Of a DNA stretch of 21,891 nucleotides, positions 11,954 through 21,397 are shown piece after piece. The stretch's first letter is position 1. Every line of letters starts with the position of its first letter. A program made the translations under genes and the position numbers. The notes below the pieces were generated by a model. It was not told the origin of the DNA, searched no databases, and worked only from the letters and a program-made list of their open reading frames with translations. The stretch lies in assembly GCA_030668825.1 (NCBI GenBank), contig DAOVET010000039.1, forward strand, positions 1-21,891, in the 5' to 3' direction. This DNA is from Candidatus Heimdallarchaeota archaeon. GTDB lineage: Archaea > Asgardarchaeota > Heimdallarchaeia > Heimdallarchaeales > Heimdallarchaeaceae.

Positions 11954-14920
11954 TTGACTACTGATCAAGAAGCAGCTAGCTTCTTTCTAGAATATAAACC
12001 AAAATACAAAATCTTTCATGAACTTATGAAAAGAAGAATGAAAAATGTCCTTCTCGTTTCTAGTATTTATGATAGTTTTATGCTCGAAGAGGATGGTCGA
12101 TTATCTGATCAAATTTATGAAGAATTTCAAAATCTCAATCTTCGAACTCTACCAAGAATTACTCGTGTATCTTCTGCTAATGAAGCCTTGGATATGCTAG
12201 AAAAGAAAAAGTTTGATTTAGTTATTACTATGAGACGATTAGGCGATATGGATGCTTTTTCTTTTGGAGCAAATGTTAAAGAAATCCAAGATATTCCTGT
12301 AATTCTACTATTAAATAGTGTTGTAGAAATCAAGTATCTTCCTGAATTTAGTAAACGAAAAGGTATAGATAGAGTCTTTGTTTGGAATGGAGACAGTAAG
12401 ATTTTCATTGCTATTATCAAACATCTTGAGGATAGATTTAATGCAGATTTCGATACAGATGCTGGTAATGTAAGAGTTTTTATCTTCGTTGATGATTCAA
12501 TTAGGTTCTATTCTCTAATGCTTCCAGAATTTTATGGAGAAATTATGAGACAAACTCATCGGTTAATTCTTGAAGGTACAAATGATTTTCAGGATTTACT
12601 CAAGATGCGAGTAAGACCAAAAATTCTGCTTGCAGAGAATTATGAAGAAGCCGTTTCATATTATGAACGCTATAAAGAATACGTAATGGGCGTTATTTCA
12701 GATATCGAGTTTCCACTTGATGGAGAACTCAACAAAAATGCTGGATTTCTCTTTGCAGAGAGAATAAAAAAAGATTTTCCCAACTTACCTATTGTTCTAC
12801 AATCAAGTAAAGACTTTTATCGAGAACAAGCCGAAGAGATGAACTGTTATTTCATTCATAAACGGTCACATGGTATGCTGTGGGATCTTCGGAAATGGCT
12901 TCTTGAATATGTTGGATTTGGAGAGTTCATATTTAAAGATCAGGATGGCAATATTTACGGTCATGCTACTGATGTCGTTACCTTTTACAAGCAACTTTCT
13001 GAAGTACCTTTAAATTCCTTAGTTTATCATGGAAAAAGTGATCATTTCTCTAACTGGTTACGTGCAAGAGGCGAATTCGAAATTGCTGAAACATTGAAAC
13101 CTCGGAAAGTTTCTGAATTTACTGAAATTGAGCTTAGAGACTTTCTAATTAAAACAATAGATAATATTGTAATAGAAAAAACAAGAGGTGTTATTAATGA
13201 TTTCTCTCGAGATAATTATCATCCTGAGACTCTTTATCTAAGATTGCGACCCGGTTCATTAGGAGGAAAAGGAAGGGGTATTGCTTTCTTGATGTTCCTC
13301 CTTAACTCTTTAATGATTAAAGATGAATTTCCTACTATAAATATCGAAATTCCAAAAACCATTGTTATTGGTACTGATGAATATGATAAGTTTATGGAAG
13401 ATAATAATTTATATGAATTCGCTTTATCAGATGTTCCAGATTCTGAAATAAAGAAGAGCTTCGTTAATAGCAAACTATCAAGGAGTCTAAGAAATGATTT
13501 AGCGTTTATTCTCAAAGATTTAGATGGTCCTTTAGCTGTTCGTTCATCAAGTCTTCTAGAAGATTCCGCGTATCAACCATTTGCAGGTATATTCGATACA
13601 TACATGATTCCCAATAATCATGGAAGTAGGAAGGAAAAGCTTGAGAAACTATGTACAGCTATAAAACTTGTTTATGCATCTCAATTCTTAAAACTTGCAA
13701 AATCATATGTCGAAACCATTCAACAGACTGTTGAAGAATCGAAAATGGCTGTTGTTATACAAAAAGTAGTAGGAAAAGAAAGACACAAACATTATTATCC
13801 AGATTTCTCTGGAACTGCAGCGTCATATAATTATTACCCATTTGGAGACTATATGAAACCTGAAGATAGAATTGCACATCTAGCTCTAGGGCTTGGTAAA
13901 ACAATTGTTGATGGGGAATTTTCTGTGCGGTTTTGTCCAAAATATCCTAAACTAAATTACTACTCAACACCTGATTTATTATTAAATCTAAGCCAGAAAA
14001 ACTATTACTGTGTTGATTTAACAAAAACTGAATTTGATATTCTAGATGATGATCCATATATCAAACGCTTACACCTTGGAGATGCCATTAAAGAGGGAAC
14101 CTTATCTAAAATCGCAGATAATTATAATTTCAATACAGAATCTTTAGAAGAAGGTTTCTTTGGCAAAGGATCCCCTGTTATAACATTCAATCAGCAATTA
14201 AAATTTGAAACTACACCTTTAGCAAGATTGGTAACTAGAATTTTATCTATTGGTGAAAGAGCTCTAGGTTCTTCAATAGAAATTGAGTTTGCTGGAAACT
14301 TCAGTAATTCGAAGAGCGAAAAAGATCAATTCTATATATTGCAAATAAGACCATTCTTACAACAAGAAGCTCTTTTATTGGATGATTTTGAGGTTGTAGA
14401 TGTTAATCAAATCTTAGCATTTTCTTCGCATGTGTCAGGAAATCTTCTCCGATCGGATATCAAGGATATTGTTTATGTTAAAGCAGGGATGTTTGATAAG
14501 ACCAAAACTCTAGAAATTGTTGAAGAAATAGATTTACTAAATTCCCAATTAACTAAAAAGAATCGCCCCTATTTGTTAATTGGTTTTGGTAGATGGGGAA
14601 CTGCTGATAGATTTTTAGGAATCCCTGCTAAATGGAGCAATATTAATGGGGCGAGAACTATAATTGAGACATCTCTAGAAGGTTTCTCAATTGATTTTTC
14701 TCAAGGTGCTCATTTCTTCCATAATATTGTATCAGCTAATATTGGGTATTTCCATATTAAGCACAAATCTGAGCATCATAAGATAGATTGGGATTGGATA
14801 AATAAACAAAAATCTAAAACTGATTTGAAATTTGTAAGACACATTGAGTTGAAAAACCCTTTAACAGTCAGAATAGATGCTCAAAAACGAGAAGGAATAA
14901 TATTAAAACCTGAAAAATAA
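11954..14920 (+). CDS. Receiver-domain-containing PEP synthase/pyruvate phosphate dikinase-like protein (PPDK_N ATP-grasp domain)
   Basis: N-terminal pseudo-receiver, a second receiver (FVDDS...VISDIEFP...IVLQSS...FIHK), a DUF5752-like segment (SLVYH...HFSNWL), PPDK_N motifs GSLGGKGRG, PLAVRSSSLLED...FAGIF, MAVVIQKVVG, LGLGKTIVDG and EIEFA...FYILQIRP, and C-terminal GRWG...SQGAHFFHN. TTG start after AGGATGTGA. Confidence 0.85.
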   Translation: MTTDQEAASFFLEYKPKYKIFHELMKRRMKNVLLVSSIYDSFMLEEDGRLSDQIYEEFQNLNLRTLPRITRVSSANEALDMLEKKKFDLVITMRRLGDMDAFSFGANVKEIQDIPVILLLNSVVEIKYLPEFSKRKGIDRVFVWNGDSKIFIAIIKHLEDRFNADFDTDAGNVRVFIFVDDSIRFYSLMLPEFYGEIMRQTHRLILEGTNDFQDLLKMRVRPKILLAENYEEAVSYYERYKEYVMGVISDIEFPLDGELNKNAGFLFAERIKKDFPNLPIVLQSSKDFYREQAEEMNCYFIHKRSHGMLWDLRKWLLEYVGFGEFIFKDQDGNIYGHATDVVTFYKQLSEVPLNSLVYHGKSDHFSNWLRARGEFEIAETLKPRKVSEFTEIELRDFLIKTIDNIVIEKTRGVINDFSRDNYHPETLYLRLRPGSLGGKGRGIAFLMFLLNSLMIKDEFPTINIEIPKTIVIGTDEYDKFMEDNNLYEFALSDVPDSEIKKSFVNSKLSRSLRNDLAFILKDLDGPLAVRSSSLLEDSAYQPFAGIFDTYMIPNNHGSRKEKLEKLCTAIKLVYASQFLKLAKSYVETIQQTVEESKMAVVIQKVVGKERHKHYYPDFSGTAASYNYYPFGDYMKPEDRIAHLALGLGKTIVDGEFSVRFCPKYPKLNYYSTPDLLLNLSQKNYYCVDLTKTEFDILDDDPYIKRLHLGDAIKEGTLSKIADNYNFNTESLEEGFFGKGSPVITFNQQLKFETTPLARLVTRILSIGERALGSSIEIEFAGNFSNSKSEKDQFYILQIRPFLQQEALLLDDFEVVDVNQILAFSSHVSGNLLRSDIKDIVYVKAGMFDKTKTLEIVEEIDLLNSQLTKKNRPYLLIGFGRWGTADRFLGIPAKWSNINGARTIIETSLEGFSIDFSQGAHFFHNIVSANIGYFHIKHKSEHHKIDWDWINKQKSKTDLKFVRHIELKNPLTVRIDAQKREGIILKPEK

Positions 14921-16332: not shown

Positions 16333-16482
16333 TTAATCTGCTAATCTAAATTTTATTTAAAACCATTGTGATATAACATTAAAATTACGTATTATATATT
16401 CACAAAAATACGGGAAGTTGGGTGCAAGTTTAACTAGAGGCTTATAAAAATTAAAGAAAAAAATAGATTAAAAAACTTATTT

Positions 16483-17235
16483 TTATTCTAGTTCTTTCTT
16501 TATAACATCAAGTATTTTGTAAGAATCACTCAATGCGTCATATTCTATAACAGATTCTAACAGATTGTTGATTGTAGGTTGAACTCTAACAGGAGGCATG
16601 TTGACCTTTTCCTTAATCTCAGCTAGCTTAAGACCTTCAGGACGAGATGCAATTGTTGCAACAACCTCTGCTTCAGGAACATCCATTAGACCAGCATCCA
16701 TCAGATACACAATCAGTTTATTTTCATTTTCTACTTGTGCTAACCTAGCAGTTGCTTCAGCTATTTTATGATCCAATGCATCAACAGTTTCCTTCGATTG
16801 AGTTTGAAGTTGAGTATAAATTAGCTCTTTACCTTTGACATCAGAACTAAATTGGTTATGTTCTGATTCCAGTTGACTAATCTTCTGTTGAAGATCAATA
16901 ATTTTGTGTTCAATTTCTTCTTTGTATTGTCTCTTGCTGCTTTCCGTCAATTCCAGTTCACTTTTCTTAACAATATTGATTTCTATTTCAGTTGTGGTAG
17001 TTTCGATTGATTGTTGTGTATGCATATCCTTCTCTTCTAGTTGTTCGTTGTTCTCCTTCAGTCCATGCAAAGAATTTTTTAATGAAACAATATAGTCTGG
17101 AATGACTCTCACATCATCTATTGTGGAATCTAGTGTCATTTTAGAAGTGGAAATAGTAGCTGAAACACGAGAGGATAATTCCTCAATATCTCTCTTAATC
17201 TCTTCAAGTAAATTTGTTAGTTTTTCTTCTGACAT
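16483..17235 (-). CDS. Long coiled-coil protein with a C-terminal winged-helix domain (paralog B)
   Basis: About 175 aa of heptad-rich E/K/L/I/Q sequence, then PEAEVVATIASRPEGLKLAEIKEKVNMPPVRVQPTINNLLESVIEYDALSDSYKI. SD AGGTGA overlaps the upstream stop, favouring ATG 17235 or 17238 over GTG 17244. Confidence 0.75.
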   Translation of the reverse strand: MSEEKLTNLLEEIKRDIEELSSRVSATISTSKMTLDSTIDDVRVIPDYIVSLKNSLHGLKENNEQLEEKDMHTQQSIETTTTEIEINIVKKSELELTESSKRQYKEEIEHKIIDLQQKISQLESEHNQFSSDVKGKELIYTQLQTQSKETVDALDHKIAEATARLAQVENENKLIVYLMDAGLMDVPEAEVVATIASRPEGLKLAEIKEKVNMPPVRVQPTINNLLESVIEYDALSDSYKILDVIKKELE

Positions 17236-17244
17236 CATAATCAC

Positions 17245-17997
17245 CTAAATATCAATACTTGAGAGCAATTTGAACCTTCCAGAGGCAGGATCATATTCAA
17301 TAATTTCTCTTCGAGCTAAGTCTTGGAGAATTTTACGAATAACGTCATCAGAAACACCAGAGGTTTTCTTAAGATTTTCAGCATTATCTACTCCAGGTGT
17401 ATTCAAACTACGTAAAACCTGTATTTCTGGTAAAGTAACAATATCATTCTTCACTAAATATTGTAAAGATTTAGAACGGGAAAGTACTCGATTAAAATTG
17501 TTTTCAAGTTCAGCGTTTTTAATCTCTCTAGTTCTTATTTGTTCTTTAGTTTCTTCATTTAATGCATCTGTTAACACATCAAATTCTTCGATTTTGCGTT
17601 TTAAATTCGCAACTCTTTCTTTTAAGGAATCAACTTGAAGATTGACTTCAGTACTGACTTTTTCTCTTTCCAAAATTAAAGCTGATAACTGCTCAATATC
17701 TCTTTGTTTACTAGTGACTTCAGACTGAAGAACATCTCTTCTATGATTTAGCTCTTGTAATTCATTTTTGAGTTGATCCAAGTGATTCGAGCTTTGACTT
17801 TTCTTTTCTTCTCCTGAATTAATAGTTTGATTGATTTCATCGGCTTCTTTGAAAAAGGAGGAAAGTTCTTCCGTAAGTTCTCTAATCTTCCCGGTAATCT
17901 CTTCTTTTTTGCTAGCTAAAACCTGTTGCAATTCGTCGAGGTTTGCAGTTAACCTCTCAATATTGTTTTGAGCTGATTCAAGATTTACTCTACTCAT
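17245..17997 (-). CDS. Long coiled-coil protein with a C-terminal winged-helix domain (paralog A)
   Basis: About 180 aa of continuous heptads, then PEIQVLRSLNTPGVDNAENLKKTSGVSDDVIRKILQDLARREIIEYDPASGRFKL (HTH plus beta-wing). Confidence 0.8.
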   Translation of the reverse strand: MSRVNLESAQNNIERLTANLDELQQVLASKKEEITGKIRELTEELSSFFKEADEINQTINSGEEKKSQSSNHLDQLKNELQELNHRRDVLQSEVTSKQRDIEQLSALILEREKVSTEVNLQVDSLKERVANLKRKIEEFDVLTDALNEETKEQIRTREIKNAELENNFNRVLSRSKSLQYLVKNDIVTLPEIQVLRSLNTPGVDNAENLKKTSGVSDDVIRKILQDLARREIIEYDPASGRFKLLSSIDI

Positions 17998-18086
17998 TTT
18001 ATTTCCTCACATTACTAATCTGTGTAAACAATAACAAATAATACACCATTACCTAGCTAAATAAATCTTGTTAAAGCTTAAATGAC

Positions 18087-18114: not shown

Positions 18115-19338
18115 TTACTGAGTAAATGAATCAGGGCTGTCTTCTCCACCTTCAATATTGTGGCAAAATGCAACATGCGATGCAGTGTACCATTTGGCTG
18201 GTGGGTCATCAACACGGCAAATATCCGATACTAAAGGACAGCGTGTTTGGAATTTGCAACCTGGAGGTGGATTAATAGGAGTTGGAATATCTCCAGTCAA
18301 GAAGATTTTCTTTGAGCGTTTGGTAGGATCAGCAATTGGTACTGCTGAAATCAAGGCTTTAGTATAAGGATGCATCATTGATTCAAAGATTTCATCACTG
18401 GTTCCTGCTTCCATGATTTTACCGAGATACATGACGTTTACTTCATCACAAAGAATCTTAACGAGTGAAAGATCGTGAGCAATAAAGAGATAGGTTAATC
18501 CCATTTTTTTCTGCAAATGTAAAATCAGTTGGATAATAGCTGCACGGACTGATACATCAAGGTTAGATACTGGTTCGTCCATCACAATGAAATCTGGTTC
18601 TAAGGCTAATGCTCTTGCGATACCTAGTCTTTGCCTTTGACCACCACTGAATTCGTGAGGATAACGGTATGCATGGTGAGGGGCAAGACCTACATCCTTT
18701 AGAAGAGTTAAAACTCTGTAACTAGCTTCGTCACCAGATGCAACTCCATGAATGTCAAATGGTTCGATAATGATATCGTGAGCTGTAGCTCTTGGATTTA
18801 ATGAAGCATAAGGGTCTTGAAATACTATTTGTAAATGTCTTCGAATCTCCTTCATTTCATCAGAAGTTAAACGATTGATGTCAATACCTTTGAAATAAAC
18901 AGCCCCTTCAGTAGGTTCGTGTAACCTTATGATTGTTTTTGCGGCTGTACTTTTTCCGCAACCAGATTCACCAACTAAACCAACAATCTTTCCTTTTCTA
19001 ATCTGAAGGCTAATACCATCAACAGCTTTCAGATGCGCTACTCGAGGTCGCTTATTGAAAGGAGGAATATATGGTAAAGCAAAGTAGAGAACAACAATAG
19101 TTGCAATAATAATGAGTCCAATTACTTGTTCAAAAGCAAATACTACGATTGCTGCTACGAAAGCTATCATGAACCATGTAGTTTCAAAGGGAACTGGGAT
19201 GTCAAAGAATTTCTTCAGATTTTCTATTTCCAGAACAACGTCTTCTGCCATCTCCTTAGTTCGAATACGATCTGCAAGTAAACCTCTTTTCTGTTGTTTA
19301 TCATGAAGTCTATCAATAAAAGAATCTGCACTACTCAT
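18115..19338 (-). CDS. oppF: Oligopeptide/dipeptide ABC transporter ATP-binding subunit OppF/AppF with an inserted hydrophobic hairpin
   Basis: KAVDGIS, GESGCGKST, VFQDPYASLNPR, YPHEFSGGQRQR, DEPVSNLD, IAHDL, HPYT and the C-terminal PPPGCKFQTRCP...C...CH oligo_HPY/Fe-S motif. Confidence 0.92.
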   Translation of the reverse strand: MSSADSFIDRLHDKQQKRGLLADRIRTKEMAEDVVLEIENLKKFFDIPVPFETTWFMIAFVAAIVVFAFEQVIGLIIIATIVVLYFALPYIPPFNKRPRVAHLKAVDGISLQIRKGKIVGLVGESGCGKSTAAKTIIRLHEPTEGAVYFKGIDINRLTSDEMKEIRRHLQIVFQDPYASLNPRATAHDIIIEPFDIHGVASGDEASYRVLTLLKDVGLAPHHAYRYPHEFSGGQRQRLGIARALALEPDFIVMDEPVSNLDVSVRAAIIQLILHLQKKMGLTYLFIAHDLSLVKILCDEVNVMYLGKIMEAGTSDEIFESMMHPYTKALISAVPIADPTKRSKKIFLTGDIPTPINPPPGCKFQTRCPLVSDICRVDDPPAKWYTASHVAFCHNIEGGEDSPDSFTQ

Positions 19339-20608: not shown

Positions 20609-21397
20609 TCATTTTTTTGGAATACCAGCTTTTTGTAGTTTTTTTCTAAATCTTATTACATCTTTTCTTAATGTTGGGAGGTGTACATTTAGTTCCTCTT
20701 GCAAGTGAAGCATGATATAAAGTTTCACTGCTGGATAGTCTAAATAGAAAGGGAAAAAAGCTACTATCATTGTTAGTGCAGCAGTACTTATACTTGCAAA
20801 TGGAATAATTTTCTTTCGGATAAGTTTAGTGATTTCTTCCAACACTACATCTAGCTCCTCACTAGCCTGTGGGAGAATCTGTTTCAAGTATTTTGCTAGG
20901 AGATTGACTTTTGCATGCAGCTCATCAGTAGCATTTTCGCTATCATTGCGCAATAATTTGGCGTTTTCTAGAATTTCTTTTGCTTGTGTGACTTTTCTAG
21001 CGTAAACACCTATGTCTCTGTCAACACCCCAAAATCGTAAGATTCTATGCAACAATTTTTGTTGTAATTCTCTACCATAATAAGCTAAGGTACTATCAAG
21101 AAGAGCAAGAAAATATGCTAACATATCATCGTTGTTGAAGCTATTGTCACTTGAGTGACTTTCCAGCAATAAATCACTTAAATATTGGAATTGAATGAAT
21201 GCTTCCGCAAAGATATTTTCAGGTATAGATTTCTTGGCTAAATCAGAGATAATCTCAATAAATCTGAAGATATGGCGTAGGTCTTGGCTCCAATCTATGC
21301 GCTCCAATTTCCCATTAATTAGAAAGAGTGGGGTTTGCAATTCACGGATAGTCTTTTCAAGGGGTTGTAGGTGCACTGAGTCAACGATAGTAGTCAT
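20609..21397 (-). CDS. Divergent TFB/TFIIB-like (two cyclin-fold repeats) protein lacking the zinc ribbon
   Basis: QDLRHIFRFIEIISDLAKKSIPENIFAEAFIQFQ parallels TFB repeat 1 (ERNLxxAxxELxRxxxxLxLPxNVxExAxxIYR). LQEELNVHLPTLRKDVIRFRKKL parallels the TFB C-terminal HTH (VAEVAGVTEVTIRNRYKEL). The protein has no cysteines. This is a pattern match by eye only. Confidence 0.55.
   Translation of the reverse strand: MTTIVDSVHLQPLEKTIRELQTPLFLINGKLERIDWSQDLRHIFRFIEIISDLAKKSIPENIFAEAFIQFQYLSDLLLESHSSDNSFNNDDMLAYFLALLDSTLAYYGRELQQKLLHRILRFWGVDRDIGVYARKVTQAKEILENAKLLRNDSENATDELHAKVNLLAKYLKQILPQASEELDVVLEEITKLIRKKIIPFASISTAALTMIVAFFPFYLDYPAVKLYIMLHLQEELNVHLPTLRKDVIRFRKKLQKAGIPKK

Follow-up and report, generated by a model that had tools for sequence, protein, structure and literature searches.

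Two adjacent paralogous genes of Asgard archaea encode coiled-coil rods with C-terminal winged-helix heads, a candidate fixed-length linker

Hop2-Mnd1, a eukaryotic recombinase accessory, is a heterodimer of paralogues of about 200-250 amino acids (aa) that form a parallel coiled-coil rod, with two winged helices together at one end of the rod and a second functional site at the other. The chains of Spc24-Spc25, which serves as a spacer in the kinetochore, are also paralogous, about 200-220 aa long, and carry an N-terminal coiled coil and paired C-terminal heads. In MarR-type dimers two winged helix-turn-helix (wHTH) heads are paired in the geometry that is usual for DNA binding, and cullins, ESCRT-II and CdvB have winged helices that bind proteins. 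Paralogy of kinetochore subunits is discussed in passages of 10.1101/514885, which also present Ska1 as a coiled coil with a winged helix that binds microtubules, and sections of 10.1101/2024.01.07.573240 describe the kites (ScpB, MukE, Nse1/Nse3) as tandem winged-helix proteins encoded in operons with SMC and kleisin. For archaea, passages of PMC11188069 describe arCOG09748 and arCOG11741, proteins that combine a coiled coil with a winged helix at the C-terminus and that adjoin ESCRT-III and Vps4 in Euryarchaeota; ESCRT-III is proposed as the ligand of the winged helix, and the coiled coil as a stalk. Here we describe two adjacent genes, A and B, of Candidatus Heimdallarchaeota archaeon (assembly GCA_030668825.1, contig DAOVET010000039.1, positions 1 to 21,891; this whole stretch of 21,891 nucleotides (nt) is called the window below). 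They are a well-conserved, uncharacterised Asgard gene pair, each member of which encodes a long rod followed by a single winged-helix head.

The two genes abut on the minus strand (17997-16483), and their open reading frames (ORFs) and translations agree with a preliminary description of the window, made from the sequence alone, in giving two adjacent genes of about 250 aa each. The genes and the parts of their products are as follows, where pLDDT is the predicted local distance difference test score of the model.

17248..17997, minus strand: gene A, the upstream member, 250 aa (P0001), stop codon TAG at 17247-17245 (ORF and translation)
17449..17991, minus strand: rod of A, continuous helix 3-183 with a heptad repeat, pLDDT 86-97 along the helix
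17266..17430, minus strand: head of A, winged helix 190-244 with helices 190-198, 206-213 and 217-229 and strands 233-236 and 241-244
16486..17238, minus strand: gene B, the downstream member (P0002), stop codon at 16485-16483 (ORF and translation)
16696..17235, minus strand: rod of B, single helix 2-181 (AlphaFold2)
16513..16680, minus strand: head of B, winged helix 187-242, then a short C-terminal helix (AlphaFold2)

AlphaFold2 models built on family alignments (mean pLDDT 90.3 for A and 86.1 for B) thus show one single helix per protein, 3-183 in A and 2-181 in B, which a linker of 5-6 residues joins to the winged helix in both. We regard it as fairly secure that the structure is one of two matched rods, each about 26-27 nm long and ending in a winged-helix head. 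Foldseek found no full-length structural match in the PDB; the heads alone were matched, that of A by MarR, Fur, Z-alpha and TFE winged helices (expect values, E, from 4.7e-3) and that of B by MarR, TtgV, TrmBL2, MotA and the cullin WHB domain (E from 3.8e-3). PDB profile searches with full-length family alignments gave generic coiled coils only (myosin tails, SMC arms and tropomyosin), and no Pfam or NCBIfam model reached its cut-off for A or B, the matches being sub-threshold generic coiled-coil and wHTH models. When heads from the wider family were searched, TrmB was matched by 8 of 18 A heads (best E 1.9e-6, with no head shown to pass the curated cut-off), and TFIIE_alpha and MarR were matched as well; the 17 B heads matched MarR (10, best E 2.6e-6), TrmB (8) and MarR_2 (7), and their best PDB sequence match is an Lrs14-like regulator (E 4.3e-4). 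Both heads are winged helices of the MarR/TrmB type. No Walker A motif, cysteine or hydrophobic segment is present in either protein (maximum KD19 hydropathy 0.58 in A and 1.2 in B). These results bear out the preliminary description in several respects: it had given each protein about 175-180 aa of coiled coil and a winged helix, with rods of matched length and with neither a Walker motif nor a transmembrane segment, and had placed the proteins in no named family, in keeping with the lack of any Pfam, NCBIfam or PDB family above threshold. Two other labels were discarded. A PF24161 annotation carried by three Njord-labelled homologues was not reproduced when two of them were rescanned at E <=0.01, and PADLOC comparisons with the defence proteins JetC, LmuB and DruC gave mere coiled-coil noise.

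A and B are paralogues. BLASTP aligns them over their last 140 residues (E 9e-5), a profile-profile comparison of Heimdall-family alignments relates them over 217 columns (89.6% probability), and the heads by themselves, aligned across Asgard families, match in hhalign over 81 columns (98.5%, E 3.1e-15), confirming the kinship that had been proposed for the heads. The motif said to be shared by the heads reads IEYD-xx-S-xx-[FY]K[LI]L as described; the junction ahead of it was misspelt, being YL-x8-PE and not YL-x7-PE. Each gene is present in single copy in the genome of the window. Sequence searches recovered 47 homologues of A, of which the full-length ones are nearly all exactly 250 aa, and 44 of B (237-253 aa), and the organisms, where named, are Heimdallarchaeaceae, Heimdallarchaeota or "Asgard group"; a HMMER pass with B over 1.84 billion representative proteins returned 8 proteins.

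Profile searches of 400 genomes of the phylum widen this range. A Heimdall-family profile of A matched 80 of them, among these 27 of 30 in the window's own family (the window genome uncounted), and its distant matches fall in ORFs of about 250 aa in other families. A family-wide profile matched 323 of the 400 at E 1e-6, a tally that overstates the range of the family because many of the weak matches are noise. Strong full-length matches are found in families f1-f7, f9, f11, f12, part of f19, f20, f26 and f27; in f25 and f28 (two genomes) the best matches, taken by us as noise, fall in coiled-coil proteins that are long (396 and 708 aa). A query with a single Loki-type protein returned 25 loci from records mostly titled Promethearchaeota or Promethearchaeia, including Loki_b32 (relatives of the f20 proteins), and Njordarchaeota names occur among the homologue records. 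The pair is thus present in many Asgard families, among Heimdall-group, Njord-labelled and Loki-type genomes. A protein atlas added unnamed Promethearchaeota clusters (0.91-0.95) and one Bathyarchaeota cluster (0.77), the latter a lead only. A published description of the family was not found in the literature searched, and an asCOG number in supplementary tables is possible.

Eighteen distant loci were fetched, and 21 non-redundant loci from 10 Asgard families were compared. An A-like gene is followed directly by a B-like gene in 20 of the 21, the remaining locus being interrupted by the end of a contig, and the gap between them ranges from an 11-nt overlap to a 29-nt spacer (first-start ORF calls). 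No neighbouring gene cluster is common to the families. A maximum likelihood tree of 50 rows, from a quick IQ-TREE search, is split by a branch with all 22 upstream genes to its one side (SH-aLRT 80) and all 25 downstream genes to its other (96), and the sub-topologies of the two halves mirror each other. This split, with its mirrored sub-topologies, points to one old duplication followed by joint inheritance, and the survey across Asgard genomes that the preliminary description had called for accordingly finds the pair conserved together. Two copies of the pair are carried by some genomes (G105, G094, G002, G003, G004 and G053), the second pair being located elsewhere in several of them. In G105 two A-B pairs stand in tandem (L047, contig G105:C8, 1468-4591), and since both extra members branch beside their own kind, this pair was duplicated as a unit. 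Three genomes of families f13 and f31 carry instead a lone gene, 223-229 aa long and of the same design (L078 in G114, L079 in G384 and L080 in G370), with no paralogue adjoining it within 1.5 kb. These singletons form a clade of their own on the A side of the tree, and they may resemble the pre-duplication, presumably homodimeric, form.

The length of the A rod is held constant while its sequence is not. From a conserved N-terminal basic column to the junction leucine, A spans 167 aa in 21 of 22 sequences, at identities to the window protein of 13-20% outside its own family, and the corresponding span of B measures 175 aa in 11 of 25 sequences; in 13 it is a heptad longer (181-182 aa), and in one it is 158 aa. 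All of these counts depend on anchor columns of the MAFFT alignment. Both rods fall into three heptad segments, divided by two register shifts of +3 that lie near residues 25 and 145, and when aligned from the head junction their heptad phases agree in all three segments at A(i)=B(i-2). Such agreement is expected of paralogues, and would fit a parallel in-register dimer. In the Heimdall family the first 12 residues of A are almost invariant, and the invariant residues of its rod (D88, S92, S96, Q103, E110, T116, E117 and S124) fall on the outward-facing heptad positions b, c and f, so that the N-terminal tip and the conserved rod surface look like binding surfaces. The B rod is marked by conserved charged residues in its core, K92, E99, K102 and K106.

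The sequence around the two genes suggests that they are expressed as a unit. The signals read from it are the following.

17241..17246, minus strand: AGGTGA, Shine-Dalgarno sequence of B, overlapping the stop codon of A
18005..18008, minus strand: GAGG, Shine-Dalgarno-like sequence 7 nt before the ATG of A
18058-18065, minus strand: TTTATTTA, putative TATA-like box, a candidate
16446..16475, minus strand: oligo-T runs T6, T7 and T5, 8-40 nt past the stop codon of B

Gene B has three start options, at 17244, at the ATG of 17238 (251 aa) and at the ATG of 17235 (250 aa), and AGGTGA ends 2 nt before the second and 5 nt before the third. The ATG at 17235 is the most likely start, because homologues open with MSEEK, and both proteins are then 250 aa. 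As the stop codon of A lies inside the Shine-Dalgarno sequence of B (read directly at 17246-17241, the overlap being as the preliminary description had it), translation of A and B appears to be coupled. Oligo-T is a termination signal of archaeal RNA polymerase, and the runs past B are a likely archaeal terminator. Three T5 runs also lie between A and the oppF-like gene upstream of it (18112-18087), so the T-rich runs that had been reported on both sides of the pair are indeed there. The neighbours in the window are a glutamate dehydrogenase, two oligopeptide-type ATP-binding cassette (ABC) ATPases, a receiver/PPDK_N protein and a transporter of the major facilitator superfamily. With T runs on both sides and unrelated neighbours, the A-B unit looks like a self-contained bicistronic operon, and the absence of a conserved neighbour in the 21 loci upholds the view of it as a stand-alone two-gene operon. 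Of the sequencing runs listed as containing this stretch none is recorded as RNA, and two that had been guessed to be RNA, with low-depth contigs scattered over it, are probably DNA.

The explanation of these observations that we prefer, and to which we give somewhat more credence than to its being wrong, is that the co-inherited paralogues zip into a fixed-length, two-headed linker. A and B are ancient paralogues, inherited and translated together, that most likely join in parallel and with matched register to give a heterodimeric coiled coil about 26-27 nm long (180 residues at 0.148 nm per residue). The winged-helix heads of both chains would then lie next to each other at its C-terminal end, with the conserved tip at the N-terminal one. 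The rod would be a fixed-length two-headed linker, and this is our best guess at its function, which we infer, as we do heterodimer formation and parallel orientation; directly observed are the gene pair, its fold, the kinship and joint inheritance of its members, the constancy of the rod length and the agreement in heptad phase. The two heads together may hold a single, conserved partner in the cell, be it nucleic acid or a protein with affinity for winged helices, and the N-terminal tip together with the stripe of A at 88-124 (mostly positions b, c and f) may bind something else or drive higher-order assembly.

Of the partners that the heads might hold, nucleic acid is the first to be considered, with the pair acting as a nucleoid bridging or segregation adaptor or as an unusual transcription factor in which a MarR-like dimer sits on a long stalk. 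This is a functional sub-case of the linker explanation, and the two can hold together. The best sub-threshold matches of the heads are DNA-binding wHTH families (TrmB for A, MarR and Lrs14-like for B), the recognition helix of B keeps a basic residue (PPV-x3-R-T-I-x2-L-E-x-K-G-I), A keeps basic columns at the end of the rod and in helix 3, and two heads held together would have the geometry usual for DNA binding by wHTH domains. The charge of the heads speaks against it: their mean net charge is +0.2 in A (-4 to +5) and -1.9 in B (-7 to +2), those of the window have a pI of 4.9 (A) and 4.8 (B), and the whole proteins are acidic (means -5.3 and -12.5, respectively). Moreover, the recognition helix of A in the Heimdall family starts with acidic residues (S-D/E-D/E/Q), the wings hold D, S and G instead of basic residues, the exposed residues of helix 3 vary across families, and no DNA-metabolism gene is a conserved neighbour in the loci compared. 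With neutral to acidic heads and wings that lack basic residues, DNA binding is possible and not indicated, and we treat it as a doubtful, if serious, candidate. A more specific version, which we think quite improbable, is an Asgard-specific spacer whose MarR-like head pair sits on chromosomal DNA while the N-terminal tip and central stripe sit on a cytoskeletal or envelope partner; if true, such a tether would be a prokaryotic rod-and-head design like that of Spc24-Spc25/Ndc80 or Hop2-Mnd1, predating eukaryotes.

Whether A and B pair with each other decides between the linker and a second explanation, in which A2 and B2 homodimers remain separate, or associate side by side as tetramers or filaments, much like intermediate filaments or crescentin, and the pairing of the genes is co-regulation only. 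When A and B were co-folded with ESMFold2, ipSAE was 0.53 in all three runs, against 0.00 for the highest of 3 controls; at least 94% of contacts are the same from run to run, with partner pLDDT of at least 84. The mark passed here was reached by 58 of 80 solved complexes and by 2 of 110 mismatched pairs, and passing scores of 0.60 or below were given to only 7 of the 80 solved complexes and to both of the passing mismatches. This weak pass, against 0.00 for the controls, speaks against a homodimer-only reading. So do the strict adjacency and co-divergence of A and B since one ancient duplication, and so does the core of the rods: in five consecutive layers I94, K97, I101, L104 and I108 of A stand opposite K92, L95, E99, K102 and K106 of B, and because B holds K92, E99, K102 and K106 in its core, a B2 homodimer would stack like charges, and clash, in four of the five. 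Adjacency with co-divergence, translational coupling, equal lengths, heptad phase, core layers and the co-fold together suggest, weakly, that a heterodimer is likely.

Several observations weigh on the other side. The co-fold pass is graded weak by the tool, and its score is silent on chain orientation. The two register shifts are roughly symmetric about the centre of the rod, so that an antiparallel A:B arrangement may also be compatible with the sequences, and the constant span of A relies on the MAFFT anchor columns at low identity. A crude score of core (a/d) and g-e' contacts over 20 Heimdall-family loci, an unvalidated toy that we count neither for nor against, gives means of 34.8 for A:A, 32.2 for B:B and 28.3 for A:B, thereby ranking both homodimers above the heterodimer, and the in-register A:B value is no better than those of A:B shifted by 7-21 residues (22.0-31.6). 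Of 52 core layers, 16 are polar in A and 17 in B, and 4 are polar in both, where 5.2 are expected by chance; none of the 9 charged layers of A coincides with any of the 8 charged layers of B (chance probability about 0.19), and neither figure amounts to significant complementarity. A homodimeric form evidently works, because f13 and f31 carry a single gene without a paralogue, and these single-gene relatives favour the homodimer explanation. The rod seen here has conserved ends, a constant length and stutters at conserved positions, and intermediate filaments are of the same design in these respects. The rods do weakly match keratin (E 0.019) and crescentin; these filament-family matches are generic, Rod_CreS scoring 25.5 bits against a cut-off of 100, and we rejected an intermediate-filament or crescentin rod on these scores. 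Taken as a whole, we consider the homodimer explanation unlikely. That A and B form a hetero-oligomer of some kind seems to us fairly probable, and that this is a parallel in-register heterodimer stands just past the even mark. The obligate parallel heterodimer of the preliminary description is weakly supported: the co-fold lends it weak support (0.53 against 0.00), and the core and e-g complementarity favours neither A:B nor the in-register alignment. The chromosome-organising or cytoskeletal role put forward there is a candidate on which the gene neighbourhoods are silent.

An ESCRT accessory, in which the winged-helix heads bind ESCRT-III-type subunits and the coiled coil is a stalk, is very unlikely: the same layout occurs in ESCRT-locus proteins of other archaea according to passages of PMC11188069, and the A heads weakly match the CdvB winged helix of the PDB (2xvc, E 0.11), but this match is weaker than those to MarR, TFE and cullins, no ESCRT gene or other conserved neighbour occurs in the 21 loci, the window neighbours are unrelated, Snf7 occurs in none of the 13 Pfam matches of B, nor in the best 25 of the 49 of A (E up to 1), and the models are one straight helix and not the ESCRT-III hairpin. 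A CdvB-type ESCRT-III protein itself was rejected likewise, there being no hairpin in the models, no Snf7 among the matches listed and no related neighbours.

Three further genes of the window gave observations of their own. The oppF-like ABC ATPase (18115-19338, minus strand) carries ABC_tran at residues 107-257, oligo_HPY and an N-terminal extension of about 100 residues that holds a long hydrophobic stretch (FMIAFVAAIVVFAF...IIIATIVVLYFAL), and its start and the stop of the oppD-like gene upstream of it have 4 nt in common; the extension could belong to a membrane-anchored ATPase subunit, or could come from an over-extended start call. On the plus strand, 11954-14920 encodes a protein of 988 aa with a receiver-like N-terminus (Response_reg 30.3 bits, at a cut-off of 30.2) and, in the same protein, a PPDK_N AMP/ATP-binding domain (E 4.7e-35), which together look like a response-regulator-controlled dikinase-like enzyme. 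An ORF of 262 aa on the minus strand (20609-21397) has no Pfam match at E 1e-5.

The A-B genes have been held together since one old duplication while the length of the A rod stayed constant at 13-20% identity. As constant length is a hallmark of a spacer or ruler, the pair is probably part of a structure with defined geometry, and probably one as yet undescribed. If the heads bind DNA, the pair would represent an archaeal chromosome tether of a new type; if their ligand is a protein, it would be a pointer to an unknown assembly. Both proteins are small, soluble and acidic and their genes can be co-expressed, which makes stoichiometry, length, DNA binding and partners directly testable.

Among the known systems compared, SMC, Rad50 and MukB were rejected: A and B have 250 aa against about 900-1200 aa, no Walker A motif, no cysteine and an unbroken helix where those proteins fold back at a hinge or zinc hook between the two halves of a Walker A and B ATPase head, and NCBIfam SMC and Rad50 models match arm regions only, at 16-30 bits against cut-offs of 567-1087, in agreement with the preliminary description, which had set the pair apart from SMC/Rad50. 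The label "chromosome segregation ATPase", which one source gives to some homologues, is explained by coiled-coil likeness. Kite membership was also rejected, as A and B each have a single winged helix after a long rod; few heads give kite-type matches, and these are weak (MksE in 3 of 18, best E 0.004; ScpB in 1 of 17, E 0.0099), and neither SMC nor kleisin is a conserved neighbour in the loci compared. Ska1 does not occur among the PDB profile matches listed (60 of the 71 of the A heads and all 52 of the B heads), nor among the Foldseek matches listed for A and B.

The MarR/TrmB/Lrs14-type wHTH proteins (PF01047, PF12802 and PF01978) share the fold of the A-B heads and are their best sequence and structure matches. 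However, the regulators of this type are small proteins of about 140-350 aa that carry the wHTH close to the N-terminus, within or ahead of a short module for dimerisation, whereas in A and B the order is reversed, the wHTH following a rod of 180 residues, and the heads are neutral to acidic. Nor do the window proteins score as members: TrmB reaches 14-16.7 bits against a cut-off of 25.6, and the B head of the window matches no MarR model. The archaeal arCOG09748 and arCOG11741, as described in passages of PMC11188069, resemble A and B in having a helical or coiled-coil region and then a C-terminal winged helix, but they adjoin ESCRT-III and Vps4 and have extra domains, whereas A and B stand alone in every locus compared and are paralogues of fixed length. 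This distinction is drawn from description and gene context.

Among the eukaryotic rod-and-head complexes, Spc24-Spc25 has, like A-B, an N-terminal coiled coil and C-terminal heads, but its heads are RWD domains whereas those of A and B are winged helices, and no sequence or structure match to it was found in the Foldseek and PDB profile searches of A and B. The sequence link to Hop2-Mnd1 is not significant either (the Mnd1 helix-turn-helix model in 2 of 18 A heads, best E 0.028; PDB 4y66, E 0.13). Its winged helices are N-terminal, whereas those of A-B are C-terminal, and its rod consists of three short zippers, that of A-B being one straight helix of about 180 residues. In architecture, nevertheless, Hop2-Mnd1 is the closest to the A-B pair: it shares the paralogous chains, the coiled coil and, if A and B form the heterodimer that we propose, the paired winged helices.

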